Source: Eledone cirrhosa
Taxonomy: Eukaryota
Length of the DNA stretch: 64,000 bases
Reading direction: 5' to 3'
Assembly (NCBI GenBank): GCA_964016885.1
Contig: OZ024742.1
Span: 183,954,001 to 184,018,000, forward strand
Positions 2,209 to 32,427 of the stretch are shown in pieces. Under the pieces are notes generated by a model. That model did no database searches. It was not told where the DNA came from and saw nothing but the letters and a program-made list of their open reading frames with translations. How positions within the stretch are numbered: position 1 is the first letter of the stretch; each line of letters starts with the position of its first letter. A program made the position numbers and the translations under genes.

Positions 2209-2806
2209 GCGTATGCGTACGTCAACTTTTTCCGTCTATAATGGTAATTTACCCAGTTTTCTAAACTATTATCTTTAATGAGCGACTATTGTTATAGCTA
2301 TTTTCTGTGGTGGAACTCTCACAATTTCAAATATTCTTATAATAAAATCATAGAAAAGTATTAGTTTATATTTCCTGGAATGAAAAGATTTTTTTAATTA
2401 TTATTGGGAGTGAGCATGATTCCAGTTCATTTTTCACTTGAATGCTTTATAAAGTCCAAATAATGCTTTGTAGAATTATATTCTTGATATGAAGCTCTAT
2501 ACTACTAAAGGGCTTTAAATGGCTTTAAATGGATTCCTGCTAGATAAAACACTTCACCAATGCATAATAAAGGATGAATCTTCCATCGGTTTTGACGATG
2601 AGCCTTCTTCGTCTATTAACTTGGCGTCTAACCTCCCTACTTATCACCATCGGCAGAGAGCTGGCTGCCCGCAGGTGTGAGCCTCACGCGCTGGAATGGC
2701 TCTTCCAGCGTATCTCCCACACCATCCTCCGGTGAACGCTTTCTGTATTCTGTCCGCCGGGGCCGTGGGGTGGCCAACGCGTGGGCCCCCATTTGCTCAT
2801 AATAAT

Positions 2807-2985
2807 TGTTTTTATTTGGCACAAGGCCAGCAACTATCCCAGTACATTACTGGTACTTTATTTTATCGACTCGGTATGGATGAAAGGCAAAGTTAACCTC
2901 GGTGGGATTTGAACTCAGATCATAAAGGGCGGTAACTCTATGCTGCAAAGCATGGCGTTCGACTCTCTAACGATACTGCCACTCC
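2807..2985 (-). mobile_element. tRNA-derived SINE, family 1
   Basis: B box GAGTTCAAATCC, 3' end GGCCTTGTGCCAAA...AACAATTATT; 13-bp TSD TGCTCATAATAAT at 2794-2806 and 2986-2998. Confidence 0.85.
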
Positions 2986-3169
2986 TGCTCATAATAATGA
3001 GAGATGGGGAAGAGAGGGAGAGACGGAGGCAGTGACAGTGGGAGTTTGGTTCCTCTGTGTTCGGACCTGGTGTACATGTGTGTGTGACTGATTTATTTGT
3101 CTAGGTTTTGGTATAAATATACCTGTGAATTAAGGTGTAAGTGTTATATTTTCCACAGAAACGTATACC

Positions 3170-4629: not shown

Positions 4630-4920
4630 TTACACACGAACTACTGACCAAATAATGTTTGATATCAATGGGTTAAAGACATCTGTCAAAATACATAATA
4701 TTTTTTTTATTGGGAAAGGTAAGGTATTTTTCCGCAAAAATTTGATTGCACTATTTTGTTTCCACTTATGCATATTTTTTTTTTAAATGCTATTTATTCA
4801 TTATAAAAATTAAATGATAGCATTCTATATGTAGGTGGACCCCCTTCATCTCTTGGCAACCAATATTTTTAGACCCAGTCCGACACTCTGTGTGTGTATG
4901 TGTGTATATATATATATATA

Positions 4921-5633
4921 TATATGTGAAAAAATGGGGAGAAGAATACTGCAGGTTGCATATGGATAACATGTTATAAAATGAGTCCCTCATCAGTGAT
5001 TTGCCGACGATCATAGATATTTCATTGCATTAAAAATCATATACCTCACGTCGGTGCAATAATAACTAAATTAAGTTATTAGGACAATTAAAACGCGTAA
5101 AGCGAGTGAGACAAGTAAACAACAACGAGGAAAGCTAACCGTAGAGAGGAAGGGAACAAGCTACATAGTTATTCTGTTAGCATAAGCTGGGTGAATATAT
5201 GAGCGCTTAGAAAAAAGACCTTTCGAGATGAATCCAAATGTAAGAAAGAAGGAAAATGTATTCGTCGCGAACGGGGTGAAGTGAGAAGGGGAGAAACAGT
5301 GAGTGAGTGAGTGAGTGGAAGTGTGAGGAAGAGTTAACTGACATGACAGAGGGGGCGAAAGAAAGTAGGAGAAACAGAGAGAACGAGGGAGCAGTAAGAG
5401 AGAGAGAGAGGAAAACAGAATCGCAGTTTAGGTAAATATATGTGAAAAAATGGGGAGAAGAATACTACAGGTTGCACATGGATAACATGTTATAAAATGA
5501 GTCCCTCATCAGTGATTTGCCGACGATCATAGATATTTCATTGCATTAAAAATCATATACCTCACGTCGGTGCAATAATAACTAAATTAAGTTATTAGGA
5601 CAATTAAAACGCGTAAAGCGAGTGAGACAAGTA

Positions 5634-5641
<8 letters not shown>
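4921..5641. repeat. ~205-bp direct repeat pair (4921-5125, ~5437-5641), pseudo-LTR-like, between (TA)n tracts
   Basis: Two copies with about 2 mismatches separated by a ~310-bp purine-rich spacer; CTGATGA on the minus strand but no intact downstream GAAA. Confidence 0.8.
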
Positions 5642-6229: not shown

Positions 6230-7500
6230 GATGTTCGTAGTTGTCTCTGTGGCCTAGCGGTAGGTAATAGAGACGGTGGAGATCCTGGGATTGGGTTCAA
6301 TTCTGGCCAAGAGGTAAATGTGATCTTCATCAGTTTTTATTTTACATCCAAATGTTCAAATATTTGGGCCAAAAGGTCCAAATATTTGAACATTTTACTT
6401 TCAAAAATTATCAAAAAAATATGGTTGAGACACCACCCCCGGCGATATGTCTGCTGTCGTGTGACAACGGCGTAAAAGTTGAGAGGAGGGTTACGTCGAA
6501 CACAGAAATTGACACAACAAACACCACCACAAACAACGTGAACAAAGACAGCAATGACAACAACACAGAACACTAATTTAAAAAAAATTACCACACCAAC
6601 GATAATAGTAACAGCGACAACCAAAATACAGACAACAGAAAAATATGACAACAAATGCAACAACGAAATTAACACCACTAACAAGAAAATAAACAACGAC
6701 AACACCAACAACAACAATACAAATTGCACCGACAACAACAACAAAGGTGGCTCCAAAAACACAACAGTGATAACAGCAACAACACCAACAACACTGTTTG
6801 TAGCAGTAGCAACAGTAACAGCAACAGCACCAACAACAAGACCAGTAGCAGCAGTAGCGGCAGCAATATCGGTGCCGCTGAAAAAGGGGCCACTTCTTTC
6901 GCAGGTGTGGCCCGAAATATAGAAACAGTGCTAGTCACGAGGGAGGAGATGGCAGTCGCAAGGGCCATGGTGACAAGAAATGATAATAGAGTTTCCCTGA
7001 AACCTCCACCCGATTCTTTCAAGGACCAGCAGCTACGGACGGTGACTTACCGCACCGTAAGCAAAATGTCACATCGGGTGGAGAGAGCCTCGGAGGCTCG
7101 AATCGAAAAGGCCTTGGGGTGTGTCTGAGCGCGCAAAATCCACATCACCCGAGGCAAAAAGTATGCCACAGTAGACGTACTTTTCGCCACCCCGCGAGAG
7201 GCGAAGTCTCACTCTTTGGAAACCCTGAACAGTGATGAGATAGACTTGGTGCCCTCATACTGCTGGCAGAAAATTGTGAAGGTCAAAGTGACCCAGATCC
7301 CGCCCGACGTGCCCATACCTTGGCTGGCCGCGTCTGTCCTTGGCTTGGATCTCGCCATACGAGCCATCTTACTGGACCCAGAAGGTAAGTCGGTGGTGCT
7401 GGACGTGACCGGCAGCGAAGACAATGCTTTCAGGCTAGTAGCCCTCTACGCCCCAACAGGGGTAGGACGGCCAGATTTCTTCACACGTCTAGAGACCTTT
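6230..7500 (+). mobile_element. Decayed chimeric Tx1/L1-like fragment (T0a): ORF1 5' half fused to a short APE segment
   Basis: SFAGVARNIETVL...TVTYRTVS...WLAASVL matches ORF1 at 26544, then jumps at ~7341 to GLDLAIRAILLDPEGK...YAPTG of ORF2. Confidence 0.8.
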
Positions 7501-10500
7501 TGGCCTACATATTTGAACTTTTTTACATATTAAAAAAATATCGAGAATAAAGAAACACAAAAAAAACATGGCTGATCCACGCCCCCCTCAACGATATGTC
7601 TGCTGTCGTGTGTGTGACAACGACGTAAAAGTTGAGAGGAGCGTTACGGCGAAATTAACAGAAATTGATACAACAAACACCACCACAAACAACGTGAACA
7701 AAGACAGCAATGATAACAACACTGAAAACTCTAATTTTGAAAAAAATGACACTAACAGCGACAACCAAAATACAGATAACAGAAAAAATGACAACAAATG
7801 CAACAACAATATCAACAGCACTAACATGAAAACAAATAGCGACAACAGCAACAATACCAACTGCACCGAGAACAACGGCGGCACCAAAGACAATAATGAT
7901 AACAGCGACAGTGATAACAACAACAACACCAACAAGAACAACGACAACAACAACACCACCAACGACAACAAGAAGAACACTTTCGCTGCGGCAACAGCCA
8001 AAAAGAGGCCATGCTTCAACATGGACCTCTCAAACAAAGATGAAAAGTTGGCCCAGGCCTGGAAGCTCATCAAGCAAGAGCAAACCTGGGAACTGTCCCG
8101 GCAGAAGCTATTGAGGCAGTGGAGCGAAGAACGGTGCATTATAGATGCATCTCAGTACAAACCAAAAGGGCAGCTTTAATCCCACAAGCAGATGTCGAAG
8201 TCGCGCTGAGGTGCATTAGGGATGACACCGAATACATAGCGAGGGGCAGACAATACGGCACCATTTCGGTGCTGTTTAAGTCAGAAGCCCTCGCTATGAA
8301 ACACGCTATGAAACACGCTATGACACCTTGCAAAACCAGCAAGGTCATAATGTACCCCTCCCACATGGGAAAAAGAACAGCCTGTCTCCGCATTCCCAGA
8401 ATCCCACCAGGACTTGACATGTGGTGGCTTCTGGGATGTGTGATTGTGGAGGGGACGGATACCGTCCCGATAGAAGTAACAAGAACTGCCAAAGAGGACT
8501 GGTCCGGGGTTGACCTGGAGATACTTCTCCAGATCAGGCTGGAGAATGGGACGGTCATACACATTATGACCGAGGACAAAAGGCCGCATTGTTTTGTTTG
8601 TGGGGAAAAACCCATTTGCGAGCCTTCTGCCCTCAACTGCTGAAAGATGCAAGCGGTCGAAGGGCTCCATTGCTGCCGACGCCGGGGCGAGGACCACAAC
8701 CAACACCAGCACCGGCAAAACCACCAGCAACAACACCAATAGAAAGACCACCACCAACATTGACCACCCAGAGGGGAAACGAGGGAAGTTGTCAACCTCC
8801 CCCCCCCCCCCAAACAAAAAATGCACATCAATAAAAACATAAACACACACACGGACACACTTACAGACACAGACTCCTTATCTACCAGTAGTGAAGATGA
8901 GGGAAAACCAAAATCCCCCAAAATACAAAAAAGGAAACACAAAAAGAAAAAAAAACAACTCAACAAAGCACAAAAACGCCCACAATAAAAAATGCAGACA
9001 CCACCCACGCAAACATCTCCCCAACAACACCAACATCAACACCACCATCACTATCACCATAATCCCCCAAACGCAAACAACCTAAACAGACGCAAGAACA
9101 AATACACACATAAATATCTGAAACCACAGGCACCGCACTTACAACAAACACAGACACAACCGAAACAACATCATCGAAACCATCACCACCACAGCAACAC
9201 AAACAAATAAAATCACACCAACAAAACATACAAAACTTCGTGCTCGTCAGGAGGGCCAACAAGGAACTGATGGCCCTCGTAGCACGAAGTGAAAATATAC
9301 AAAAAGAGGGGGAAATTTTTAAATCGAGCACATTTCGCGTGCCGGAAGATTTGGTTCTGGTGCGAATGTCGATCGAAGTATACAAAGAAATAGGAGACAG
9401 CTTTCCTCGGGACGTGGAAACCGCGAACGTAAAACCAACTTCAAGACTTTTAAAGGGGTTCCCAAAAGAAACCCCACCAACTATGGAGGTCGAACAAACC
9501 GACCTTCACAAGAGCCCGGAAGGTAAGTAAACCTTTCCTCTCTCTCTTTTTAACCTGCCAACATGGCCGTATTAAGAGTAGGATGTTTAAATGTTCGAGG
9601 CCTGGGATCGTCCTGGAAGCAGGGTCACCTGCTCAATGACCTCAGGTCTCTAGAAATGGATGTAATTGCCGTCAGCGAGACCAGGATTTTCGACACGCGC
9701 GCACTAGCCCCCATTTTCGACGACTATCAGATCTTTGCATCTGTTAGCCGGCCGGGAATGGGAGGCGGGGTGGCAGTGCTGTTTAGGAAAGGCCTGGATC
9801 TTGAGGTAAGGTCGATCTTCCGGGACCTGGACAGGAAGTTGGTGGTCCTGGACGTGAACAATAACGAAGGTGGTGCCTTTAGACTGGTGGTCGTCTATGC
9901 TCCTACTGGGGCAGGACGGCCGGACTTCTTTAGACGCCTGGAAACCTTTCTGGGCACGTCTCGCCCTTTACTGTTAGCGGGGGACTGGAACGGCATCTTA
10001 GACGCACGCTGGGACTGTGTGGGAGTAACTGATAGGAGCGGGGGTGCAAAAGCCTTAAGAACCTGATCAGCCAGTTCCAACTGTCTGACAGGTACCGACT
10101 AGATTTCCCTAATACGCCAGTGTGGACCTGGGCTAACCGCATAGGGTCATCTAGTTCGTATATAGACAGGATATTCATTAGGAAAATAGACAGAAATAAT
10201 GTAAGCTGTCCACGTTTTAAAACGGTCGCCTATTCAGATCACAAGTTTGTGATCTGTATAGTCGACCTAGATAAGACGCGTAGGTTAGGACCTGGTTACT
10301 GGAAGCTAAACATGTCATTTCCGGCACGTAAGGCTTACAGGGACCAGGTCAACAATTTAGTTAAGAAAAAGTTGACAGGGGGAGTCGTCAACAATAGATG
10401 GTGGGGGGAGGGGGGCTCTCAAAAGAAAGATTAGAGTAATGTCGATAGAGTTTAGCAAAGAAGTAGCGTTAGAGAAAAATAGAAAGGAGGGGGAGTTGGT

Positions 10501-11005
10501 AGATAAGTTAGCGAGGCTATTGGTAGTGGCATTGCAACTGACGTGCTAGCGGCGAGAATGGCATTAGACCATTTCTTCAATGCGAAACACGAAGGTTGCA
10601 TTGTCAGAGCTAAGGCGCGTGCTCTGAGAAACGAGGGAACCAAAGCTGTTCGATGGGCCCGCGTGGCAGAGGCGCAGCGTGGTAAAACCACGATTCGGTC
10701 TTTGACGGACCGAGACGGACACGAGCTGAGCGATTCCAAGCGGATGTGTGAGGCCTTTCGCCAACATTTTGCTCGGTTGTTCGGGGGAATTGGCGGGTCA
10801 GAGATGGTGGCGGACTTCAGTCCCTACCTCGATGGCTTGCCGCAACTCTCGACGGCTGACGCTGGGCGCTGCGAAAGGCCAATTACTTCAGCCTAGATTC
10901 AGGATGCCCTTGTCATATTGTTTACTCGATTTTTCTGTAAAACCCCAGTCCCAGTCTTTTGTATTGTCCCCTATATGTCGGCCCTTGTGGCCAATAAATG
11001 AAATC
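7501..11005 (+). mobile_element. Decayed Tx1/L1-like LINE, divergent subfamily (T0b), RT region deleted
   Basis: Frameshifted ORF1 (7568-9530) with knuckle CFVCGEK..H....C; ORF2 from 9563 (LNVRGL, SET, GDWN, SDH) breaking at ~10905; 3' end CCCTTGTGGCCAATAAATGAAATC + (ATT)n. Confidence 0.85.
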
Positions 11006-11158
11006 ATTATTATTATTATATATATAATAAATGTTATATAGCTGACCACTATGGAAATTCCACAAACCATTTAAATGTCATATTGATCTTTAATATTTGG
11101 CGGTTGCTTTTAATTACACCGTGGTCACCTATATAACATTTATTATCTCAAAAAGAAG

Positions 11159-11338
11159 GTGAATTGGCAGTATCGGTAGAGGGTTGGACGCCATGCTTTC
11201 TAGCATAATTACGTCCCTTTACAGTCTGAGTTCAAATCCCGCCGAGGTTAACTTTGCCTTTCATCCTTACGGGGTCGATAAAATAAAGTACCAGTAATGT
11301 ACTGGGTAATTGCTGGCCTTGTGCCAAAAGTAGAAACA
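11159..11338 (+). mobile_element. tRNA-derived SINE, family 1
   Basis: A box TGGCAGTATCGG, B box GAGTTCAAATCC; 17-bp TSD ATTATCTCAAAAAGAAG at 11142-11158 and 11339-11355. Confidence 0.9.
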
Positions 11339-12084
11339 ATTATCTCAAAAAGAAGCGATAAGTGTTTCTCTGTGATCTAAAAGTTCTGTAGAATCTGGCT
11401 GGGACAAGGTCCCGTTACATTCCCTACATTGTTCCTCCGGTACATTACCAAGATTCTGGTTGTTTATTTTAGCGGGGCTTACTTCTATGTAGATAATAGT
11501 GAGGTCTCCATATATGAGCTTTTGCATTGTAACAGTTATTGTATTATTTGTTATTCATATTTATAAATTATGCTAGTGTCACCTCAGTCGTGAGATATTA
11601 TTACAATTGTCGTAATGGAGGAAATCGCTTTCTCAGATTCGTGAATCGTACATGCGTTATTTGATTTCTATTTGAATGCTATGAATAAATTCAACTATCT
11701 ATTTCTGGTTATATTCCTGATGACAGAAATCGGAGCTGTACTTTAATTATAGACTCCACTATATGTTTATCTTCTCAGAAGAGATATTTTGAACCAAGTT
11801 TAACGTTGTAATGTCATTAAAAGACAGACCAATCACTAAAAAGTTATAAAACCAGTATAACTGGTCTTATATTCAGTTCAACTATAACTAGTAAGCACAT
11901 ATTCTTTCATTTTCATACATTGTATATGTATGGAACTGTAAACTCCTGATGAAATACGGCGTATCCTGAGCATTTTTAACCTGGCAGAGCGCATCCCTCT
12001 CCAAGTCTGAAAACAGCTGATTTCTTCCAGAGAATGAGCGAGAGGAAGTAAGAAAGATATATAGAGGAAGAATCGACACCAATA

Positions 12085-13966: not shown

Positions 13967-14494
13967 GGATAAACGATCCGGCTCTAACTGAAAAGATCCA
14001 TCAATATTTTCGATTAGAATAATTCAGGCATTTAATGTTACGTTGGTATTTATACTTTACTGATTCTATTCTGATCTTCTCTCAAGTTGTATTAAATGCA
14101 GACAAATTAGTTGTATTTTGTCATTTTATATTAGATTAATTTGTCTGGGAGTTTAATAGAAATTATATTATATTACAAGGGTTCTATTTAGTAAAACGTA
14201 TGAGAAGACTTACTTCAGGTGGTCATTCGATCTGTTAGAAAGAGCAGCCATATTTTCTCAAACCACACTCTACTTTCTTAACAACGAAAGGACACATTGG
14301 GTAATGTAGTTCTAGATATAAAATGACGGTATGACGGTATGACAATGGAGTAAACAACAATAACAGAATATTGTTTTCTTAAACATACGCTATATTTGAC
14401 TTTTTCTAATAAAAAAAAACTGTATTAATCTATATATCTATGGTGGCAGTTATTCTCTCATGTGCGTGTGTGTGTGTGTCTTTTATTAAAGACA

Positions 14495-14692
14495 CAGAAA
14501 GCGGTGTATTGATAGTATCGGTAGAGCGCCAGACAAAATCATTTGCGCTATTTGATCATGATGTTCAGCGTTTTTAGTTCAAATCCCAACGAGGGCAACT
14601 TTGCCTTTCTTCCTTCCAGTTTCGTAATTAGATCAATATAATAGACTTTCCTCTCCCCAAAATTGTTGGCCTTGTGCCTAAAGCGAAAACAA
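14495..14692 (+). mobile_element. tRNA-derived SINE, family 1 (older copy)
   Basis: B box AGTTCAAATCC, 3' end GGCCTTGTGCCTAAAGCGAAAACAA; 12-bp TSD TTATTAAAGACA at 14483-14494 and 14693-14704. Confidence 0.8.
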
Positions 14693-15139
14693 TTATTAAA
14701 GACAAGATTAAATTTTTTATCAGTTTTTCGTATCTACTTGTAATGTGATATGAGTACCGCCTCCATAATTAATCGTCTACTTTTGTTGAGAATTTTGTAT
14801 AATACGAATGTGTTGACCATCAGTATTTTCATATTCAGTTCTGTTTTGTGGCGTATGGTGTAGAGTGCTTCAATTGCCTCTCTAAGTCTAAAGTCTGCTA
14901 TTGCTGGAACCCATTTTCAGTTGAGTATACTGAAGCAACGGGAAATGAAGTGTTTTGCTCAAGAACGCAACACGCAGCCCTGCCCAGGAATCGAATCCAC
15001 GACATTATAATCGTAAGTCCAACACCTGCAATTGCTCCCTCCTGTAAATGTATCGTGAGCTTTTGAGAGAGTGTTGTACTTGTATGGCCAATGTAAAAGT
15101 TGGAGTCAGGGAGTTTATAATTTATAAATCACATTGCTT

Positions 15140-15355: not shown

Positions 15356-16165
15356 AGTTTAAATACCGCAGAGGTCAACTTTGCCTTTCATCGTTTCGGG
15401 GTCGATAAGTACTAGTAACGCACTGGAATCGATTTAATCGACTTTCGCCTTGTGTCTATATCAGAAACCATTATCAACTGTAATAGATAGCAACATCTGT
15501 AGCGCGGCTGATATATTTCTATTACGGTATTCGCTACATATATTTCTTTTCTGAGTTCAAATCCTGCCGAAGTATACTTTTGGAGCTGACATAATAAAGT
15601 GTCAGTCAAATACTAAGGCTGGTTTCGTTAAATATCTTCGAGAGGGAAGACGCCTGGCTTAGCCGTAGTGTGTTGGACTGATCCTCATAAGGTCATTGGT
15701 TCGATTTCTGAACCGACAGGCGGGCTGCTTTCTTGAGCAAGTCGTTTCATATCACATCACGTTTCATGATAGAACTGCACTCCTATCATTAACACACCCA
15801 AGAAACCTCACATCCGAAGGTTTATAGGAGACTATCTAAACATAAAGGTGCCAGCCGTAATAACATTTTTTTATCAAATATTTACTAGCGAAGACGAGTT
15901 ATTTAGAAAATCGTACGAATATAGAAAAGATTATCTCCCCCTTCCTTCCACTTCATCCTTTTTTTTTTTTTTACTGCTGTATAAGATTTCTTAATTCCCT
16001 TCCTGTAATAAGATAGAGTGGGAAAGTAATTGGGCGATTTATGTACCAATTGTTAAATGTAAAAGAGTGGCAAGTTAGATTGCCTACATCAATAACATTT
16101 ACACTCAGATGCATACACGCACACACAAACTGACACACAGACACACATAAATACACGTCTCTCTC

Positions 16166-19160: not shown

Positions 19161-19504
19161 GAAATATCTAGACATGCCCTCTGAGACACACATCTACTCA
19201 CACACTCCAATCATTATCATATATGTGTGTGGGTGGGGTGTGGGGTGGGGGTGGGGGTGGGGGTGGGGGTAATTGTTTTCTTTCACTTCATTGTATAATT
19301 TTTTTTCGTTTCTCACAAATCACAATTTCCTACGCTAATATTCTCTTTCTCCTCAAATATTTCATGAAACAGTTTTGTCTCCCATACCTTTCTTTGTTCA
19401 GGACCAATTTTCATTGCAGGATTCATAACATTTTTATGAGGAAATGAGTTCAGATTATTTTGAAGATAAATAAAGTAGAAACAATTATTACCATTATTAT
19501 TATT

Positions 19505-19600
19505 GAGGTTTACTTTGCCTTTAATCCTTACGGGGTCGATAAAATAAAGTACCAGTAATGCACTGGGTAATTGCTGGCCTTGTGCCAAAAGTAGAAACAA
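19505..19600 (+). mobile_element. 5'-truncated SINE family 1, sitting in the ATT tail of an earlier SINE end (19474-19504)
   Basis: Nearly identical to the 3' half of 11159-11338; preceded by GTAGAAACAATTATTACCATTATTATT and followed by (TTC)/(TTA)n. Confidence 0.85.
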
Positions 19601-19622
19601 TTCTTCTTCTTATTATTATTAT

Positions 19623-21744
19623 AGTTGCATTTATCTTGATTTATGTACATAGGAGTTATCACCAAGTCACAACCAGTGACCTCAAGACACAACAAGGTCC
19701 GCCATGTTGAAGAAAGAACATACATACACACACATGCATCTTTAGGTGTTTAGACTTGTGATGTACTTATATTGACAGAATCTTCCTTAGTATATGGGCA
19801 GTTCCCATTAGTACTATCTTTTGTATTTCTCCTATACGCGGGTTTCCTGGGATTTGCGATAAGTAATCATTAGACCCCTTAGGTATCATTCCTAGAGCGC
19901 CTACAACCACTGGTATTGTTTTAGTTCTCAATTTCCACATTTTTCCAATTTCTATCTCCAGGTCCTTATACTTGCTCAATTTTTCAAATGTTTTTATAGA
20001 TACATTCTTGTCTATTGGAACGGACATATCAATTAGCAGGCATACCCTCTTTTTAAAGTCCTTCAGTATTATATCAGGTCTATTTGCATCTATTTTTCGG
20101 TCTGTTTGGATGCTAAAGTTCCACAAGATTGAGATGTGATCTTTTTCAAGTATGGGAGGTGGTTGTTGCTCCCACCAATTCTTTTGATGGGGCAGGTCAA
20201 AATGCTTACACATTATCCAATGTATGTATTGTGCAGCTCTGTCATGCCTGTTTAGGTATTCGGTTGGAGCTATAGGACTGCATATTGAAATTATATGATC
20301 AATGGTCTCTGGTTATTTTTTACATACACGGCATAATGGGTTGCATCCATTTTTTATTATGTTGGCTTGGTAATTTTTTGTTGGCAGACACTGATCTTGT
20401 GCTGATATAATCAGTCCTTCAGTCTCAGATTTCAGTCCAGAGGATGCCAACCACTGATGGGTTAAAGTTTTGTCAACATCAGGATTGTTAGCTCTTTCTG
20501 GGTATTTTCCATACAGAGGCTTTTCTTGCCATTTCTTAGCCAGTTTCTGTAGCAGTTCTTTCTTTGCAGTTATTTTACCTGCTTTGCTTTTTCTGTGTTT
20601 TCCATTTCAGCAGTAAATGGGACTTCTGAAATTTGTAGTCCATTACTGTATCTTTGTGCATCTTTTGTAATGGAGTATGATCTTTTGGTGCTTTCGTGTT
20701 TCAAAACGAGTTTGATCATCCAATCATGTGATTCCCTTAGATATGTAGATAATCCAATTCTTGCAGTTTTCAACGCAATATCTAACTGGATTAACCCACG
20801 TCCTCCTTCTTTCCTAGGGAGATATATTCTATCTGTATCTGCCTTAGGGTGATGCATTCTGTGCATGGTTAATAATTTTTCTAATTTTTGTATCGAGCCT
20901 ACGGATCTGTGCTTGACCAGTTGATGATATTGTAACTGTAGGTTACTACTGGTATGGCAAGCGTGTTTATGGCATCGATCCTATTCCTTGCATTCAATTC
21001 CGTTCTTAAGATTGCTCTTACTCTGCGATAACATTCCTTCCTTATCCTTTACCTCATTGTCGAGTGTTTGATTCCATCTCCTTCACAAACACCTAGATAT
21101 TTGTAAGTTTCCTCTTGATCAAATTCTCTTATCACATTCCCCCGATCAAGATTAATGTCTGAACTTTTCAGCAGCTTTCCTCTGGTGAACGTTGCTTTGG
21201 CGCATTTATCTAGTCCAAACTCCATTTTAATGTCATCACTGAACTGCTCCACAGTGGATAATAGTCCTTGCAATTGTTCATCATTTTTTGCAAATAGTTT
21301 CAGGTCATACATGTAGAACAAGTGATTAATGGTTTTGTCAGAGACTTTGTATCCATGTTTTGTTTCATTGAGCATTTTACTTAATGGTATAAGTGCGATG
21401 CAGAATAAAAGCAGTGATAAAGAGTCACCCTGAAAAATTCCACAATTAATATTAACTTCTCCAGCTTCCAGTGATTTTGTTTCACTATTCAAAAGGAGTG
21501 TCGTTTTCCATGTCTTCATACTGAATGACAAGAACCTCCTGACAACGGGAGATATTTTGAAAATCTCTAAACATTTTTCAATCCAACTGTGTGGCAAACT
21601 ATCGAATGCTTTTTTATAATCTATCCAAGCAATTGATAGATTTTTGTGTCTATTATGACAATCTTCCAGTATCATTTTGCTAACCAAAAGCTGATCCTTA
21701 CAGCCATATGAGCCTCGTTTACACCCTTTCTGCTCATTGGGAAA
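19623..21744 (-). mobile_element. 5'-truncated R4/Dong-type RLE retrotransposon, family A
   Basis: RT ([18 protein letters not shown]), RKEGGRGL, zinc-knuckle region, RLE RPDIIL...LIDMSVP...EKLSKYKDL; (TAA)n tail; frameshift near 20910. Confidence 0.9.
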
Positions 21745-21769
21745 TATTATTATTATTATTATTATTATT

Positions 21770-24700
21770 CCTTGAATCTCAGTCATTGATGTTGGTTAAC
21801 TGGAAAGTCCGTTGGATTGAATATCAAGCCACTACCTGCAGCCTCAGATATTCAGGACGTATCGGAGGGTTCTTGCTGTTCCAAGCAAGCATGCCTTTTG
21901 AAGCGTTCCAAAAAGCGTGAAGGGGCCGATTTTCTTTAACCATCCCTGGAAACTTTTGGAGATAGTCCCCAGTGCGCCTATGACAATCGGGATCACTTTG
22001 ACTTCATGGCAGTTCCAAATCCTTTTCACCTCCCACTTTAGGTCCTGGTATCGGTTAATTTTCTCCCTCTCCTTCTCTTGCACTCTCGTGTCGAACGGGC
22101 AGGCCACATCCACAATCAGGCACGATCTTTTTTCTTTGTCCACAACCACCAGGTCAGGTCTATTGTGTTCCAGTTTTTTGTCCATCTGTATCCTAAAATC
22201 CCACAGCACCTTCACCTGATTGTTCTCCATCACCGCCTCTGGCCTATGCTCATACCATTTCTCAGAATGTGGTAGATTGTTTACTTTGCACAGGTGCCAG
22301 TGGATCACCCTGCCCATCACATCGTGTCTCCAGCCCTTATAGTGGGTCTGGGCTAGGTGTTTACACTCGGACACAATGTGAGCCACAGTCTCCTCTCTCT
22401 CTCCACAGATCCTGCACAGTGGGCTAGCCTCCTCCTTGTAGATATGGTGCTTCAACCACTTCGTTTTGAGGGCCTGCTCCTGCGCAGCCATTAGCATTCC
22501 TTCTGTAGCCTTTTTGAGGTCTCCTCTTCTCAACCAGTTCCATGTCTGTGGATCTCTAAATTCAGTTTTCTCAAAGAAGGTACAATGAAGGGATTTTCCC
22601 TTAAGGCTGCTCTTCCTCCTTGATGTTATTTCCTCCCTGGACATCCCCTGGCCTACTGTCCCCTCCTTCAGTACAGTTCTGAGCATTGGCTCCTTACTAT
22701 AGGTCACGTATTTGTATAGGTTGTTTTTCTCCATCTGAACACAGTCCTCTATGCTGATAAGACCTCTTCCACCCTAAGATCTCCTTAGGTAGAGTCTATC
22801 GACATCACTCCTCTTGTGGAACATGTTGTAGATAGTCAATAGCTTCCTAGTCTTCCTATCCATTTCTTTTTGTTCAGCAACATTCCATCTCAGAATTCCC
22901 GCACTGTACCTAATAATAGACACAGCTCGGGAATTTACTGCGCTTATGGCATTTCTGCTGTTCAGATGTGACTTCAATACGCTCCTTACTCTCCGAATGT
23001 ATTCAGTTCTTAACAATTCCTTCATTTTTTTGTTCTTTATGCCATCAGCCTCCAGAACGCCCAAATACTTGTATCCTTCCTCAGAGTCAATTTCCTTTAT
23101 CATCTCACCTGTTGGTATCTGGATCCCGTTACTTCTGCTCAACCTACCCCTCTTCATCACAATGACTCCACATTTACCAATACCAAACTGCATACATATA
23201 TCACTGCTGAAAATACGGACAGTGTCAACAAGCACATCCAACTCCTTCTCACTTTTCCCGAAGAGCTTAAGATCGTCCATGAAGAGGAGGTGATTGATGG
23301 TAAGCTCTCCCCTTCCCAACTTGTATCCTGCTCTCACTTTTCGCAGCATAATGGTCAAGGGCATCAGGGCAAGGACCAACAACAGAGGGGACAGGCTATC
23401 TCCCTGGAAGATACCTCTCTTGATCTTCCCGCTTCCCAAGGATACTCCAGTTGATGTCAACTCTGTCTCCCAGGACCCCATACTCCTGCCTAGCAACTGT
23501 CTGATGTTATCCGCCACCCTGAAGATCTCCAGGCTTTTGGTGATCCAGGAATGAGGCACCATGTCAAATGCCTTTCTGTAGTCTATCCATCCCATGGCAA
23601 GATCAGTGTGTCTCCTCCTGCAATTCCCCATTACCATCTTATCAATAAGCAACTGGTCCTTTGTACCACGTGACTTCTTTCGGCATCCTTTCTGTTCGTC
23701 CGGTAACAAGTTGTTTGTGTGGAGGTGATGGTAGATTTCCTCAGACACAATGCTCGTCAACAGTTTCCACATTACGGGCAGACATGTGATAGGTCTATAG
23801 TTGGTAGCATCATTACCCTTGATTCGGTCTTTCATTATCAGAACTGTGGTACCTTTTGTCAACCACTCTGGCACCTCACCCGACACCAAGCAGTCATTGA
23901 ACATGGCCGTCAGCTTCGGGTGGAGGGATGTTAGATGTTTAATCCAATACCCCTGCACACCATCTGGGCCTGGTGATTTCCAGTTGGTTAGTTTTTTGGT
24001 TTGCCCCTTAAGAGTTTCAACTGTGATACTCAAATCAGTCTGTTGCTGTGCCTGCTCACCGATCTCCCTCTGTACTGTCTCAATCCACCCTGCCTGGGCA
24101 TTGTGTCTAACATCCTGCTCCCATATTCCTCTCCAGAATGTTTTAGTTTGTTCCGCCCCAGGGATCAAGTCGTTGCCTCTTTCTTTGCCCTCAAGCTGTC
24201 CAAACAGCATCTTCTGGTTGTTGTCGAACATGCGGTTCTGTTTATACTGACTGACTCTGTTCTCGTATCGCCTGATTTTTGCACTCTTTGCTACAATGCG
24301 TTGCTTCAATTCCTCTATGATAATATTTAGCTTTTTACTCCTAGTTTTGTATTTTATTTCCAGTCTATTTTTAGTGCCTATGTTTTTTAGTGTCCCATTC
24401 AGTAGTGACTCAAGCTTTCCTATGTCATTTCTCATTTCCCCGATTTGCCCACTCAGTCGCTTCTTCCACCACGGCTCTGCTCTTTCTTGTCTGTTGTTTC
24501 CTCTCGCTTTTATACCAAGTAGTTTCCTCACCGTATTTGCTGTTGCTCTGAGGATATTGTTGCACTGGTGAAGGCTCCTCGCCTCAAGGTATGGGATGAC
24601 TTTGTTTACCTTAGCTGTTGTTTCTTTTAACTTTTTCCTGTCTACAAATCTTAGGTTCATAGGTCTCCCACTATCATTGTTCAATTCATCTACCACTAAA

Positions 24701-26310
24701 TTTAGGATGTCAACCGAATCTTGTCCTAGCCCGTCAGCATTCATCTCCTCAGTGGCCGTATCTCTGTTCCAGGTATTATTTATCTCAGTACTCAGATCAT
24801 TGTCTGCTTCGGGTGGTTCCTCCGTTCTCAGGACCTCCTCACCTTCATTTCCCACCGGCTCGCTTGTCTGGCATACTACACCCGCCATCTCCAAGCCATT
24901 CTCTCTGCTCAGTTCCTCCAGTTCCAGCTCGCTTATCCACCCATTAGTTCTTATTACCCGAGCCTGCCCGGCCAATTTTTGTTCATCTAATTTAAATAAA
25001 CCAATCTCGTTCCAGATGTTATGCATCCGTCTCCTGTAGCCCCTCTCCTTGGGGTTACTTTTCAGGTAGCATTGCATAACAGTTCTATTCAATTCTTTCG
25101 TCCAGTTGGTTCTGGCCCCTTTCCTTCTTCTCCTTCCTCCAACATCAGCAGTATTTGGTTGACAGTCAGGTTCCTGCTGCTGAGCCAGGGGGCACCTGTT
25201 GGGTGAGAGTCTGTCACATGACGTTCTAGTCTCCATTTCACCGTTATTCGAACTGTTTATGTTCGATATTTAAACACTCTTATCGAGGATTGGCGAATGT
25301 ATGTTTACATAGCCATCTGTGGATCCGCCATCCCACTTGGCCCTTGTGTGGCATTATCACCACGCTGTATACGAACACACATAAACAAACAAACACACAG
25401 GCAGAAAGGGCCCCAAAAATGCATATGCATAAGTTTCATTGTAATGTAGTGTTCGAATGTCTGACTTAGTTTTAGTTTTTTAAGTTTTACTTTTTCCCCC
25501 CTCTTCTCTGTCCGTCCGCCTGCTTCTTTCTTCATTCTTATTTTCTTTACGTTTTTGGGGTTTCTTTTTTTTGTTTTTGTTTTTCTCTGTTTGTTTTTCT
25601 CGTTTTTTGCTGTTGTTGCTGTGCTGCTTTGGTTTTGTTGTTTGTTTTTTCTTTTTTCTTTTGAGTCTATCTATATATTTTGATGCCTTCCTCTTTGTTA
25701 GTAGTAGGAATTCTATAATGTGGAAGTAGCAGCCAGCAGGGGGAAGTGGGAGACTGGCGGCGTTAGCGATACTGAGACAGTGGTGGTGGTGATGTCGATA
25801 CCGAGGCAGTGGTGGCGGTGATGTGACCGTATTACTGTAGTGATGGTGCTGTAGCGGAGTCAAGGGGTGGTGGCGGCGGTGATGGGATAGTGGTGGTAAT
25901 GATGGCCGTAGTGAGCGGTGGCGGTGAAGGTGAAAATGTGTCGTTATCTGGCTGTTGTGTTTAGTGTACACAGATGATGGGGTGGGTGGTGTATCTAGTT
26001 TCTGGTGTTGGTGAGTTTAGCTGTCCTATATAGTGTAGCCAGAGGAGAGGAGGGGGGGGGGGGTTCTTCTTCCATTTATAGCCATTTTTTTTTTTTTGGA
26101 TATACAGTGTACAATACAAAGTTGAATATTTGAATATTTGAGCCTTATAACAATATATTTTGGGTCCGAATTTTTTGGGGCTCAAGCCGGGTGCTTTACG
26201 TAGCATTTGTACTAAGAGTTGTTATTTCACAAATGGTTTAAATATGTTAAAAATTCAAAACTTACGGGAGCGATTTCATGACCTCCGTCACCTCGTGCGT
26301 CTTCTTCCCT
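21770..26310 (-). mobile_element. Full-length R4/Dong-type RLE retrotransposon, copy B1
   Basis: ~1.07-kb 5' UTR, single long ORF, short 3' UTR, (TAA)n on both sides; 5' end identical to B2. Confidence 0.92.
21844..25236 (-). pseudogene. RT-CCHC-RLE polyprotein (1130 codons) split by one in-frame TAG at 22774-22776
   Basis: 820-aa and 296-aa ORFs in the same frame, 13 sense codons apart. Motifs [56 protein letters not shown]. No N-terminal zinc fingers. Confidence 0.9.
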
Positions 26311-26543
26311 TTATTATTATTATTATTATTGAATGCCATGGTTGACGGAGGCTCGGCTCTGTAAGGTATAGTAATTTTTAACCGTTAAAACAATTGTAAA
26401 TTGTTTAAAACTTGAACCAAATTGTTGATAAAGACACCCTCCTCCTCGTGAGAGGGGTCTTTCTGTCCGTTATTTGGCCCTTCGGGGTTAAATAGCCAGT
26501 TATTGGGGTTTTGTACCCAAAATTTCATTTTAAACAAAACAAC

Positions 26544-28643
26544 ATGGCTACCAAAAAAAAAAAATTTCATACGTCACTCCCACTCATTCCGTCTTCTTCT
26601 TCCTCAATCATCACTACAGGAGAGAGAAGATTGTCTCTCTCCCTCCCTTCTTTAAATGTGTCTCTCTCCCTACCTTCTCTTTCGCAAGCGACGAAAGAAA
26701 AGAAAAGTCTCGTGCAAAGCGTGCAAGGTTTCTCCACGACGACGACGACAGCGACGAAACAGGTGTGCGGGAAATACGAAAACCCAGTTCATTCGTCTGA
26801 CGTCAGGAATAATAGCAGTAGCAGCCGTAATAACAACAGCAACAGTGACAATGAAAACAACAGTAGCAGCCGCAACAGCATCACCAGCAGCATAAACAAC
26901 AACAGCATTAGCAGCAGCAACACCAACAACAACCACAGCAACAGCGGCGGAGGCAGTAGTCGTAGTACCTGCAGCAACAACAAAAGTACCAGCAGCTCTG
27001 ACGACAACAACAACAGCAGAGAAAAACCAATCTCATTTGCAGGTATTGCGAAAAACCTGGAAACAATCCTCATAACAAATGAGGAATTAGAGGAAGCGAA
27101 GAAGATGGTGACAAAGAACGGACACCGAGCAATCTGCAAGGCAGCGAAAAATTTTTTCGAAACCCAAGAGCACTGTACGGTCACGTACCGTACAGTAAGT
27201 ACAAAATCCCGTAGGGTGGAAAGAGCCACAGAGGCCCAAATACAAAAAGCCTTGGGGTCTGTGTGGCAGAGGAAAACGCACATCACCCGAGGCAAAAAAT
27301 ACGCCACCGTAGACGTACTTTTTGCCACACCCCAGGAGGCAAAGGCCCAATCAGTAGTGACCCTAAGGAGCGAGGAAATGGTGTTGGTGCCCTCCTACTG
27401 CGGGCAAAAAATTGTGAGGGTCAAACTGACCCACGTCCCCCCCGGAATGACCCCTTCTTGGCTGGCCGCGTCTGTCCTCGTCGGAATCGAGGACAAAACA
27501 ACTGTACTGCAAGTACAGAAAAAAGTAAGAGAAGATTGGGTCGGCTCCTCCATTGAGATGCTAATCCAAACCAACCAGGAGTGCATCGAAGCTATCCCGG
27601 ATGTGATAGACTTCGATAACGGCACTCAACTGCCCATAAGTGTTGAGGGCAAACGCCCGAAATGCTTTCGCTGTGGATCGAAGACTCACCTCAGGGCCTT
27701 CTGCAACGAGAAGACCCTGAGAAAGGAGAAAACCCCCCTCCTCCCGAATCCGGTTCCACGGCTACCAGCAACAGGACAAGCGGCAACCAGGAACGATAGG
27801 TCCGTGGCACCCATACCCACTCCACGGAAATCAAAGACAGCAGCAGCAGTGGAAATATTAACAACAACAACAGCAATACCAAATGCAGCTGCAACAGAGA
27901 CTCCAGTGCAAACATCACCAACAACAACAAGTGAAAGAGTGGAGCTGGTACCCCTCCCCGACCTTACAGAATCAGACATGGAGTGTGAGGTGGGAGAGGG
28001 ATGGCAAAAGGTCTCAAGAAGGCACAAACGCAGAAGCAGCGCATCGTCGCCTTTGAAAAGGGAGGAAAGAAATGAGAAAAGGGTAAAGTCTACTGCAAAG
28101 AGACCCACAGCAGCAACACCACCAACACCATCACCACCCACACCAGCACCACCATCACCACCGGCGACAACCCCACCGCCAACAACACCTTCAACACCAC
28201 CACCACAAGCACCAACATCGCAAACACAACAACAAAACACACACACCCAGCAACAACGACAAGAAAATAGCAGAACCACACCCCACCCCCAGAAAAACAA
28301 ATGCACGGCAATAAACACACACAACAAGAAACTAATGACTTACATAATTGAACACACAGACATTTCACAACAGGACTACATAATACCAGCACCAATCAAA
28401 ACGCCAACTAACATAAGACTGCTAAAAATAGCACAGAAACAATACACAAACATTAAAACGAAATTCCCCAACGCAGTTGGTGATTTCAGGGACCTAGGAG
28501 GAACCATTAATCGAAGAGTATATTCAGACATTCTCTTAGAAGAGCCGACGACCAGCCGAAGGGACGATTCAACGGTCCCTTCACCAGACGATCAAGTGAA
28601 AAGGGATGTAAAAACCATCCCTCCTCTACCAAAAATACGGTAA
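26544..28643 (+). CDS. LINE ORF1 protein (gag-like nucleic-acid-binding), ~699 aa
   Basis: First ATG at 26544 in AACATGG context; Ser/Asn-rich N-terminus, CX2CX4HX4C knuckle CFRCGSKTHLRAFC, basic patch, Pro/Thr-rich tract. Confidence 0.9.
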   Translation: MATKKKKFHTSLPLIPSSSSSIITTGERRLSLSLPSLNVSLSLPSLSQATKEKKSLVQSVQGFSTTTTTATKQVCGKYENPVHSSDVRNNSSSSRNNNSNSDNENNSSSRNSITSSINNNSISSSNTNNNHSNSGGGSSRSTCSNNKSTSSSDDNNNSREKPISFAGIAKNLETILITNEELEEAKKMVTKNGHRAICKAAKNFFETQEHCTVTYRTVSTKSRRVERATEAQIQKALGSVWQRKTHITRGKKYATVDVLFATPQEAKAQSVVTLRSEEMVLVPSYCGQKIVRVKLTHVPPGMTPSWLAASVLVGIEDKTTVLQVQKKVREDWVGSSIEMLIQTNQECIEAIPDVIDFDNGTQLPISVEGKRPKCFRCGSKTHLRAFCNEKTLRKEKTPLLPNPVPRLPATGQAATRNDRSVAPIPTPRKSKTAAAVEILTTTTAIPNAAATETPVQTSPTTTSERVELVPLPDLTESDMECEVGEGWQKVSRRHKRRSSASSPLKREERNEKRVKSTAKRPTAATPPTPSPPTPAPPSPPATTPPPTTPSTPPPQAPTSQTQQQNTHTQQQRQENSRTTPHPQKNKCTAINTHNKKLMTYIIEHTDISQQDYIIPAPIKTPTNIRLLKIAQKQYTNIKTKFPNAVGDFRDLGGTINRRVYSDILLEEPTTSRRDDSTVPSPDDQVKRDVKTIPPLPKIR

Positions 28644-28645
28644 GT
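28640..28645 (+). promoter_or_regulatory. Candidate 5' splice site overlapping the ORF1 stop codon
   Basis: CG|GTAAGT; the same hexamer lies at the ORF1 stop at 9523, 39727 and 44677. Confidence 0.55.
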
Positions 28646-28678
28646 GGTCTTTCCCATCTTTTCCACTCTATTTTAAAC

Positions 28679-31600
28679 ATGACCTCACTCAGAATAGGCA
28701 GCATAAATGCGCGTGGCTTGGGGTCGTCATGGAAGCAGGGTCACCTGCTCAACGACCTCAGGTCACTAAACATAGATGTAGTGGCCATCAGCGAGACCAG
28801 AATCTCCGAAGCACGGGCCTTCGCACCGATCTTCGGCGGCTACGATGTGTACGCATCTCCCAGCCGTCCTGGATCGGGTGGAGGAGTTGCTGTGCTTTTT
28901 CGGAGAGGTTTGGATCTCGCCATACGGGCCATCTTCCTGGACCCAGAGGGTAAGCTGGTGGTGCTGGACGTGACCAGCGGAGACGGGCAAGCTTTCAGGC
29001 TAGTGGCCGTCTATGCCCCGACAGGAGCAGGGCGGCCTGATTTCTTCCGGCGTCTGGAGACCTTTCTTGGAACGTCGCGCTCTTTAGTGTTAGTGGGCGA
29101 CTGGAACGGGATCTTAGATGCACGCTGGGACTGTGTGGGATTAGCGGATAGGGGTGGAGGGTGCAAGAGCCTCACCAACCTGCTCAGGCGTTTTGAACTG
29201 TCTGACAGGTACCGATTGGATTTCCCGAATGTGCCAATGTGGACTTGGACAAACCGCATAGGGTCATCCAGATCATATCTAGATAGAGTATTTTGTAGGG
29301 AAATAGATAGGTCTAGCATAGGCTGTCCACAATTCAAGATAGTCAGCTACACGGACCACAAATTCGTGATCTGTGTGCTTGACTTAGATAGGCTTCATAG
29401 ACGAGGACCCGGCTACTGGAAGCTAAACGCGTCCTTACCAGCGCGCAAGGCCTACAGAGACCGGATTAGCGAACTAGTTAAGCGGGCGTTGACGGGGGCC
29501 ATCGTCAACAACAAGTGGTGGTTTGCTCTGAAAAGAGCGATTAGAATAGAATCGATTAGGTTTAGTAAGGCTTTAGCAATAGAGAAAAATAGAGCAGAGG
29601 GAGAACTAGTTAGAAAATTAGACGAGGCGCTTAGCAAAGGCATTGCGACCGACGTGCTTGCGGCGAAATTGGCCCTTGACCAATTCTTCAATGCAAAGCA
29701 CGAAGGCTGCGTTGTCAGAGCTAGGGTGCGTGCTCTCAGACACGAGGGGACGAAAGCCGTTCAATGGGCCCGAGTGGCGGAGGCGCGTCGTGGCAACAAA
29801 GCCACGATCCGGTCTTTGGTGGACCACGACGGGCGCATGCTACTCGATCCCGGGCAAATGTGTGAAGCTTTTCAGCGACACTTCGCTCAGCTGTTCGGGG
29901 GCAGCGGGGGGCCGGGTAGAGGGATGGACTTTAGTGTCTACCTCGACGGACTGCCGCGGCTCTCGGCCACTGAGGCGAAGTGTTGCGAAAAGCCGATAAC
30001 AGCCGCTGAAGTAAGGGAGGCAATGACTGGCTGCACAAGGGGTAAATCGCCTGGTTTGGATGGTCTGCCCTATGAACTTTACGTACAGATGCCAGACTTG
30101 TTCGGAGGCCTCTTGGCGGACGTCTACTGCAACTGGCAACAGAACGGGAGAATTCCCAGTTCTGTGAGCCGAGGAGCGGTGGCACTGCTGAGAAAGGATC
30201 CGAACAAGGGGGATAACATAGAAAATTTCCGGCCCATAACTCTGCTAAACACAGAGTTTAAGATTTTGGCCAAGGTGCTAGCAAAGAGGTTGGCGCTTGT
30301 CGTTGGTGGTCTGGTGGGAGAGGCGCAGACATGCGCCATTCCCGACAGATCCATCCACGACAACCTCCACCTCATGCGATACATCGTAGAGAGGGTAGCT
30401 AGGGAACCTGGCACGGGTGGGTCCTTGATCAATTTAGATCAGTCGAAAGCTTTCGATAGGGTCGACCATCGTTACCTAGCGGCAGTCCTGAGGGCGGCTG
30501 GCTTTGGGCCCGTCTTCAGAGGCTGGATCGCTGCCATGCACAGCGACATCTGCTCTGTGGTGAGAGTGAACGGTCACCTGTCGGAACCGTTCAACATCAT
30601 GCGCTCGGTCCGCCAAGGATGTCCCCTCTCGTCCCTCTTGTACGTATTGACTCTCGAGCCATTACTGCACAAACTGGAGACGTTGAGGGGAGTCCCGCGC
30701 GAACTAGGATGCGGAAGATCCGTGTCAGCATATGCGGACGATGTCACCGTAGTGGTGTCGAACGCCAAACACATCGAGGCGATCGGCACTACACTAAGAG
30801 AATACGAAGCGGTGACAGGAGCAATGATCAACCAGGAAAAGTCAGTGGGCCTGCAGCTCGGCACCTGGAGAGGCAGGTCCATGCCGTCCAACAGCGTCGT
30901 CGGGCGCTGGACGGACGGACCGGTTAAATTGCTAGGGGTCTGGTTCGGTCCGGACCTCCAGACGGACAAAAACTGGGACGAGGTGACGAGCAGGGTGGCT
31001 TCTCTCACCCAGAAATGGGCGGAGAGGAAGCTATCCCTGAAAGGTCGAGCGGAGGTGGCTAACGCGTACATCGCGTCTGTCATCTGCTACCGCCTAACCG
31101 TCGTACCTTGTCCTAAGCCTCGCCTGACTGCGCTGGAGCGTTTGCTCTTTCGCTTTTTGTGGAAGGGACGTGCTCCGATGGTCAGGCGGTCCATCTGTTG
31201 TCAACACCCGCTACGTGGAGGGCTGGGCATGCCGTGGCTGATGATGCGCAGGCACGCGCTCAGGCTACGACATCTCCACCTCTTCCTCGACGGTGATCAG
31301 GTGTGGTCGCCGTTTGCTAGACGCGTTTTTCCCCAGCTCGTTTCCTTGACGGAGCTGCAGTCCTGGGTCAAGCGAAGACCGAGAGGGAGCGCCTGGAGAC
31401 TGGAATGTCTTCAGGCGCTCACAGCCCTCGACCAATCGGGCAATGTGATCGGTGGAAACTCCACCTCGGCGTTCTATAGAGGATTAGTGGAGGGGAAGAG
31501 CGACGACGTACTTGGGGAAACTCTAGGCGTCGACGAAAATCAACTAGCCAATCTCTTCGGAAGAACCTTCGGGCCAGGGCCTATGGACAACTTCCAGAAA

Positions 31601-32098: not shown

Positions 32099-32239
32099 AC
32101 TAAAGGTGGAAAACTGGGAGAGGGCACTTGCCTTGGTGGTCAGGGTCATTGTGGCTTTTTACTGGGCTTTCTCCACAAATGTTCCTCCGAAGTCTCCCCC
32201 CTATTGGGGAATTTTTCATTGTTATTTTCATTGTTATTT

Positions 32240-32276
32240 TTGTTACATCCTCTATTTTTGTTTTTTTTACACGCAG
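32240..32276 (+). promoter_or_regulatory. Candidate 3' splice site in the Tx1 3' UTR
   Basis: ~80-nt AG-free pyrimidine-rich tract ending TTTTTTTTACACGCAG; equivalent AG at 48301-48302. Confidence 0.45.
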
Positions 32277-32421: not shown

Positions 32422-32427
32422 ATTATT

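Follow-up and report, generated by a model that had tools for sequence, protein, structure and literature searches.

A tRNA-type SINE and L1/Tx1-group LINEs with a shared predicted terminal hairpin: a candidate stringent pair amid ATT repeats

Stringent LINEs read the stem-loop at the end of their RNA, the loop by its sequence and the stem by its shape (PMC4176376). In the passages describing eel UnaSINE1/UnaL2 and zebrafish ZfL2, a 3' tail is shared, a stem-loop precedes a tandem repeat, the loop is constant and the stem stays paired (PMC4176376, PMC3747384). Ohshima's table holds 58 tail-sharing SINE/LINE pairs, three of them with L1-clade partners and all three from plants or algae, and as excerpted it contains no animal L1 or Tx1 (PMC3747384); the bivalve SINE partners named in the relevant passages of PMC11481361 are CR1, CR1-Zenon, L2 and Nimb, with Tx1 unmentioned there. 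Whether ancestral L1-group elements recognized RNA structure stringently has been posed as an open question (PMC3747384). Our literature search, which left Repbase Reports, Dfam and subscription papers outside its scope, did not turn up any SINE of tRNA type that has a Tx1 tail, or any tail-based SINE partnership with the L1/Tx1 group in animals; the sole Tx1-linked SINE that it returned was SINEU, described without a shared tail in the parts of PMC4494074 concerned.

Here we analysed a 64-kb stretch of DNA (the window) that holds copies of one SINE together with two kinds of LINE in (ATT)n runs (Table 1). The SINE and the plus-strand LINEs show at their ends the predicted anatomy of a stringent pair, and we consider it rather probable that a LINE family of the L1/Tx1 group mobilizes the SINE through the predicted hairpin and through pairing of the tail with the target.

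Table 1. Features of the window (positions of the 64-kb stretch)
Feature	Position	Strand	Remarks
SINE copy S11142	11159-11338	+	~180 nt; boxes (next two rows) read from sequence
A box-like motif of S11142	11165-11176	+
B box of S11142	11230-11238	+
5' TSD copy of S11142	11142-11158	+	17 bp, starts ATTAT
3' TSD copy of S11142	11339-11355	+	17 bp
Predicted terminal hairpin of S11142	11314-11326	+	CUUGU loop on 4-bp stem; loop-to-tail distance 16 nt
SINE copy	2794-2998	-	13-bp TSD starting ATTATTAT; predicted hairpin 2817-2829
SINE copy, older, longer subfamily	14483-14704	+	12-bp TSD starting TTATT; predicted hairpin ~14667-14679
SINE copy	62460-62673	-	12-bp TSD starting TTATT; predicted hairpin ~62485-62497
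SINE copy S19505, 5'-truncated	19505-19622	+	ATT runs at flanks; left edge of LINE nest
SINE copy, older	50036-50255	+	TSD not found; right edge of LINE nest
SINE copy, old, 5'-truncated	15356-15475	+	hairpin degraded; TSD not found
T1a, full-length putative L1/Tx1-group LINE	26331-32361	+	between (ATT)6 and (ATT)19
T1a ORF1	26544-28643	+	CCHC knuckle; open
T1a ORF2	28682-32098	+	endonuclease, RT, zf-RVT; open
T1a predicted terminal hairpin	32337-32349	+	AACC/GGUU stem, CUUGU loop
T2, second subfamily, 5'-truncated, frameshifted	38733-43460	+	78-80% identical to T1; predicted hairpin 43436-43448
T1b, second T1 copy	43491-48387	+	97-99% to T1a; ORF1 deletion, ORF2 stop; predicted hairpin 48363-48375
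T0a/T0b, third subfamily, rearranged	6330-11005	+	~74% to T1
T0b predicted hairpin	10980-10992	+	GGCC/GGCC stem, then (ATT)4
Dong/R4-like LINE copy A	21770-26310	-	RT and restriction-like endonuclease; (TAA)n tail; same ATT runs
Dong/R4-like copy B	32428-36968	-	99.4% to A, with which it shares the in-frame stop
Dong/R4-like copy C, internally deleted, 5'-truncated	37040-38732	-	head-to-head fusion with T2
Dong/R4-like fragments D and E	48412-50012	-	(ATT)3 between them
Divergent Dong/R4-like fragment	19623-21745	-	tail adjoins tail of SINE S19505

SINE copies and LINE families of the window

Eight copies of the SINE, ~180-200 nt long and of two length variants, could be aligned in the 64-kb window; they are conserved in a head with an A box-like motif and a B box, in the centre and at the 3' terminus; this family has the SINE2 features of being short, non-coding, dispersed, high in copy number and flanked by target site duplications (TSDs). 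The A and B boxes of S11142 lie 53 nt apart, a spacing that exceeds that of most tRNAs. ARAGORN reported 0 tRNA genes in the SINE and Rfam gave no tRNA match down to E 10; SINE heads are frequently too diverged for tRNA detection by either. Since neither returned a tRNA, the derivation from tRNA proposed in an earlier sequence-only reading of this DNA has the A and B boxes as its evidence. Two words from the centre of the SINE, taken as a check for a CORE or Meta domain, were absent from the MetaSINE supplement, and a search of the PMC5804259 supplement gave no matches. A SINE-core pattern found 0 loci in viral and prokaryote contigs and one in metagenome contigs, with head and tail differing from those of the window SINE. 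A 28-nt central word of the SINE lies in an unrelated-looking metagenome contig, L001 (1630-1657, minus strand), between another head and tail, which hints at a central domain common to several SINE families. In the window, a short remnant that looks like a SINE 3' end with an internal deletion and is followed by ATT repeats (19465-19504) lies just upstream of S19505. If the host is an octopod, the window SINE may be octopus OR1/OR2 or a relative, which we give as a lead only. OR1 and OR2 are tRNA-derived CORE-SINEs whose partner LINE goes unnamed in the passages citing them (PMC4758252, PMC4824008).

The plus-strand LINEs T0, T1 and T2 form three subfamilies 73-80% alike. Their ORF2 carries the Pfam domains PF03372, PF00078 and PF13966 and, among solved structures, is closest to human L1 ORF2p (E 1e-52, against E 2e-21 for R2). 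The T1 ORF1 translation contains CX2CX4HX4C, gave no Pfam match and has CCHC and ZCCHC3-type clusters as Atlas look-alikes (0.90-0.93, a lead only). A CCHC knuckle in place of the mammalian L1 ORF1 domain is, we assume, a feature of Tx1-clade ORF1, and T1 ORF1 fits it. The nearest named relative of the LINE RT is a cuttlefish protein (49% identity). T1 falls into a 14-row clade with a cuttlefish protein (SH-aLRT 99) in a quick tree of 51 RT stretches, made from 49 stored proteins and two window proteins, with the named Tx1 references Tx1L, Keno, Kibi and Koshi not among them. Protein searches and cluster look-ups for relatives of the LINE returned no named Tx1 element, and no ORF2 relative with DNA was found in prokaryote or viral contigs. 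On the basis of the ORF2 domains, the likeness to L1 and the CCHC ORF1, T0, T1 and T2 would belong to the L1/Tx1 group. Directly upstream of the T0a 5' end lies a single-copy stretch (6240-6330) whose A- and B-box motifs resemble those of a tRNA, followed downstream by a short inverted repeat (~6350-6390); the boxes are possibly a Pol III head on the LINE or a separate SINE.

The minus-strand LINE with RT and a restriction-like endonuclease, which by its architecture we take to be Dong/R4, encodes a protein closest to R2. It alternates with the plus-strand Tx1-type LINEs in a nest of ~30 kb (~19,480-50,260) in which ten LINE pieces lie in (ATT)n runs with SINE copies at both edges, so that two unrelated endonuclease types occur in one microsatellite. 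Of the 24 sites at which copies A and B differ, 22 lie in the ~400 bp next to the 3' end, and the two copies have a stop codon in common, which indicates that part of the nest array stems from duplication or conversion. Near its 3' end copy B resembles copy C (97%). The Dong-like 3' ends have a predicted hairpin of their own with an 11-nt loop, unlike that of the Tx1-type LINEs (21764-21810 and 32422-32468, both minus). At 38636-38733, truncated copy C and T2 meet head to head at a junction with a ~46-bp tandem duplication; this junction may reflect a deletion that took away both 5' ends. Dong-R4, L1-Tx1 and abundant SINEs are described in the repeat complement of Octopus (PMC13282606, PMC8967140); taken with the cuttlefish relative of the LINE RT, this points to a cephalopod as the probable host. 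The window is repeat-rich, with long (TA)n microsatellites beside which we found direct repeats of 342 bp (96%, 53975-54316 / 59123-59463) and 209 bp (99%, 4917-5125 / 5433-5641). An inverted repeat of 143 bp (60521-60663 / 61023-61164, 96% identity, ~360 bp apart) is possibly a MITE or small DNA transposon.

The shared end and its predicted hairpin

The SINE and LINE termini quoted in the sequence-only reading were found where it had placed them, and its alignment of the SINE end with the ends of T2, T0b and T1 stood as a match above chance, with the reservations that the match is short, at an ungapped identity of 16-20/31 nt (52-65%), and weak for T1 taken alone. End-anchored scores of S11142 were 22 with T2, 18 with T0b, 12 with T1 and 0-2 with Dong-like ends; among 42,130 other window positions the three higher values were reached at 2, 25 and 408, respectively, and among the 2,397 with ATT-like sequence directly after them at 1, 5 and 31 (a null based on a slightly shorter query and banded alignment). 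The T1 match score alone was reached by 21 of 3,000 shuffles. A better fit of the SINE tail to another LINE had been named as the observation that would speak against the pairing. Run against the Dong-like LINE, this comparison gave scores of 0-6 across seven SINE copies and four Dong ends and no better fit, and the orientation of the SINE tail agrees with the (ATT)n of the Tx1-type LINE and not with the (TAA)n of the Dong-like one. The comparison covered the LINE ends within the 64-kb window, with RTE, CR1 and L2 ends outside it, and no RTE element was found among the 18 window ORFs scanned. With a covariance model built from the three LINE ends only, five of the eight non-LINE matches, including the top three, fell on SINE ends (E 0.4-4.4); as a sequence-only model placed six SINE ends among its 13 non-LINE matches, structure contributes little to this score. 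A joint model of SINE and LINE ends (R1) was dropped as evidence because it recovers its own training set by construction. The tail match is real at a position fixed beforehand and would be inconspicuous in a blind search. Bivalve SINE/LINE pairs reach 72-95% over 35-61 bp (PMC11481361), and the window pair lies lower; its low identity suggests that the real partner is probably a Tx1-type subfamily older than, or other than, T0, T1 and T2.

When aligned with MAFFT and without guidance, six SINE and four LINE ends fall in register, and RNAalifold predicts on this alignment one 4-bp hairpin with a CUUGU loop and double changes in three of the four pairs. At pair 2 the SINE has GC where the LINEs have CG, pair 3 is GC and in T1 AU, and the outer pair 4 is UA in the SINE, GC in T0b and AU in T1, and broken in T2 (A-C) and in two SINE copies (U-U). 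In total, 37 of 40 stem cells are paired (92.5%, against 20-55% for slid controls), and the covariation score was reached by 0 of 500 shuffles; two of the five measures, pair counts and type counts, were not above shuffles (179/500 and 311/500), and the rows stem from about four lineages. The distance from loop end to tail is 16 nt in the SINE, T1 and T2 and 17 nt in T0b, in ungapped register. Among 144 CTTGT sites on both strands of the window, nine have a stem of at least three Watson-Crick pairs, and these are five SINE and four LINE ends. The motif is conserved at the ends of three LINE subfamilies only 73-80% alike. In longer context the predicted pairing probability is, for five SINE copies, 0.09, 0.01, 0.06, 0.11 and 0.85, for T1a 0.62, for T2 0.90 and for T0b 0.01 (without span limit); forcing the hairpin in SINE copies costs 0-2.6 kcal/mol, and folding z-scores are unremarkable (-1.5 to +1.0). 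An extended 7-pair stem, 85% paired, was rejected since one of its outer pairs is broken in each of the six SINE rows and RNAalifold leaves it out, and we therefore limit the claim to the 4-bp stem. The double, pair-keeping changes by which the SINE stem differs from that of the LINEs suggest selection on the fold after the split, and a constant loop on a variable and paired stem fits the pattern of stringent recognition (PMC4176376). The pairing of SINE and LINE is better supported than the sequence-only reading had argued, since the 25-30 nt in common are predicted to fold into a covarying hairpin whose distance from the tail is fixed. At position 10986 a T-to-G loop variant (CUGGU) seen in public contigs accounts for about a quarter of the depth in run X5 and ~13% in X6; it possibly marks a LINE subfamily with another loop.

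In public data, the SINE is at least partly present in 20 of the 24 runs listed, from 14 studies, and in eight runs with at least half of its words. Three contig sets and one read set were mapped on a stretch of 541 nt (10880-11420); the raw-read run X21 contributed five reads, none on the SINE, and was left out. The three contig sets gave 198,054, 259,969 and 25,804 records, with a depth peak over the SINE that speaks for its very high abundance, and in all three the consensus after the SINE end starts TATT (agreement ~0.4). All of the 15 joints listed, with 1,276 more and no control for chance adjacency, are same-strand returns, 14 of them leading from the SINE end directly into another SINE, complete or truncated at its 5' end. 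The last 55 nt of the T0b end have, in each of the three contig sets, a depth at least 10 times that found upstream, which fits conservation of the terminus across subfamilies. The summed contig depth of the SINE exceeds that of the T0-type LINE end 30-55-fold, which is not a ratio of copy numbers, since contig depths do not equal these and low-complexity tail matches contribute.

ATT target, candidate mechanism and rival partners

A TSD was identified in four of the seven SINE copies examined: ATTATCTCAAAAAGAAG for S11142 (17 bp, 11142/11339), ATTATTATGAGCA (13 bp), TTATTTCACATG (12 bp) and TTATTAAAGACA (12 bp). All four were found at the places given in the sequence-only reading, and their starts (ATTAT, ATTATTAT, TTATT and TTATT) are in ATT phase. 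Such 5-mers make up 497 of 48,626 in the background (1.0%) and 497 of 6,397 among A/T-only 5-mers (7.8%), whence p ~1e-8, or ~4e-5 when A/T richness is allowed for. The (ATT)n tail that had been ascribed to the SINE itself is absent from the copies with TSD: only 0-1 nt separate body and TSD, so that the ATT taken for a tail is the target duplication, and because ATT-phase bases already stand in the upstream flank, the TSD start is not an artefact of how the tail is defined. An ATT preference common to SINE and LINE, as proposed, holds for the SINE (4/4 TSDs) and, for the LINE, comes down to the 5' ends of T1a and T1b, which are near-identical. Each T1 copy lies between (ATT)n runs, the 5' side of the T0 block shows neither an (ATT)n run nor a readable TSD, and the 5' end of T2 is truncated; with the array partly due to duplication or conversion, the T1 copies are what is left to argue for an ATT preference of the LINE. 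ATT runs also serve as target of the unrelated Dong/R4-like LINE on the other strand. The SINE TSDs of 12-17 bp lie inside the 7-18 bp range of L1-clade elements (PMC6007223). A T stretch of RTE type ~10 nt upstream of the TSD was seen at one of the four SINE sites, a small sample. Tail repeat and TSD start correlate in RTE pairs as well (PMC6007223), and TSDs starting with ATT are hence not diagnostic of Tx1.

On the preferred reading, Pol III would transcribe the SINE from its A and B boxes, which are observed. By analogy with zebrafish L2, ORF2p may then bind the hairpin and recognize the sequence of its loop and the shape of its stem (PMC4176376). The endonuclease would nick beside ATT-phase sequence and the freed DNA end could pair with 5-8 nt of the AUU tail of the RNA, an overlap that is observed, so that reverse transcription would be primed right behind the conserved end, where we observe a tail of 0-1 nt. 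A second cut 12-17 nt away would yield TSDs of the lengths observed. The LINE would prefer long (ATT)n runs, and the SINE would accept single ATTAT or TTATT sites and the tails of earlier SINEs. The proposal of the sequence-only reading that a Tx1-like family mobilizes the SINE draws on the shared tail and predicted hairpin and less on ATT-starting TSDs or ATT runs, which are not peculiar to Tx1. Its further proposal that the SINEs scatter ATT landing pads is weakened by isolated copies, which duplicate existing ATT and add no run, and gains some support from the tandem SINEs and from the 30-kb nest that starts from a SINE tail.

The partner could instead be a LINE absent from the window (RTE/BovB, CR1 or L2), the likeness to the Tx1-type end being convergent or due to a shared tail module. 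Table 1 of PMC13282606 lists recent activity of RTE and CR1 families in Octopus vulgaris, which bears on the matter if the host is an octopod; TSD starts follow the tail repeat in RTE pairs (PMC6007223), three of the four SINE TSDs measure 12-13 bp and one has the T stretch upstream, and the SINE outweighs the T0-type end in summed contig depth (not copy number). We regard a partner of this kind as unlikely, since the same 5-nt loop, stem length and tail distance would need to arise twice; for RTE in particular, one TSD has 17 bp and three of the four sites lack the T stretch; among the 18 loose-end rows listed, with 1,240 more, no class shares the SINE tail alone. Of similarly low probability is a vestigial Tx1-type tail, with relaxed mobilization, by this or another LINE, through pairing of the AUU tail with the target only. 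The low tail identity, the marginal predicted hairpin in most SINE copies and the outer mismatches (U-U in two SINE copies, A-C in T2) would be explained in this way, and SINEU is tied to Tx1-Mar without tail homology (PMC4494074), but the changes between SINE and LINE stems are double and pair-keeping (GC vs CG, UA vs GC or AU), and none of the 40 contig variants listed, with 16 more, falls in the last 35 nt of the SINE.

That the tail match is a chance likeness of A/T-rich ends, and the ATT start a matter of base composition, appears very improbable: the match, ~25-30 nt long, was spotted post hoc and is for T1 alone equalled at ~1% of positions, but the T2 score recurs at two of the 42,130 positions (one of the 2,397 with ATT-like sequence next), the hairpin descriptor matches SINE and LINE ends only, and the TSD starts remain significant among A/T-only 5-mers (p ~4e-5). 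Mobilization by the Dong/R4-like LINE of the same ATT arrays, the commonest LINE there and one with a fragment whose tail adjoins a SINE tail, is largely refuted by tail score and orientation ((TAA)n, on the opposite strand) and has a different predicted hairpin with an 11-nt loop against it, and we give it next to no weight.

Comparison with described SINE/LINE pairs

With a 13-nt predicted covarying hairpin in the SINE and in three LINE subfamilies, and with open ORFs in T1a, the question of ancestral recognition becomes testable. We tentatively put forward the broader possibility that an animal L1/Tx1-group LINE with stringent hairpin recognition drives one of the dominant SINE expansions of its host via the 5-nt loop, and that SINE tails seed the ATT sites nucleating 30-kb nests of two unrelated LINEs on opposite strands. 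If true, this would provide a natural system with intact ORFs in which to test how stringent recognition was replaced by relaxed recognition of poly(A), as in mammalian L1, and, if the host is an octopod, a candidate engine for the SINE class that makes up 11.6% of the O. vulgaris genome (PMC13282606).

Compared with UnaSINE1/UnaL2 and ZfL2 as described in the passages cited above, whose tail anatomy the window pair resembles, the partner here would be of the L1/Tx1 group, the TSDs are 12-17 bp long, the shared segment is shorter and less alike, and the case is sequence-based. Crocodilian SINEU and Tx1-Mar (Kojima 2015, PMC4494074) are similar in that a Tx1 partner is linked through a shared target and in the tandem insertions around the TSD; in SINEU as described there, the heads are of snRNA type, the tails poly(A) and the target Mariner, and a LINE-derived tail is absent, whereas the window SINE has Pol III type boxes, an ATT target and a predicted tail hairpin that it shares with the LINE. 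In ZmSINE2/3 with LINE1-1_ZM and SINEX-3_CR with L1-1_CR, too, the partner is of the L1 clade and the 3' end is shared, and the L1-tailed SINEs of maize and sorghum have, as here, a hairpin with compensatory changes; their hosts are plant or algal, and the tails of ZmSINE2/3 and SINEX-3_CR are poly(A) or poly(T) and not (ATT)n, according to the corresponding passages (PMC3747384). Two families of the Tx1 type, Kibi with (TC)n and Koshi with (TTC)n, are also LINEs that lie in, and end in, a microsatellite, the unit of the target being ATT in the present case, in a comparison made by description (PMC4494074).
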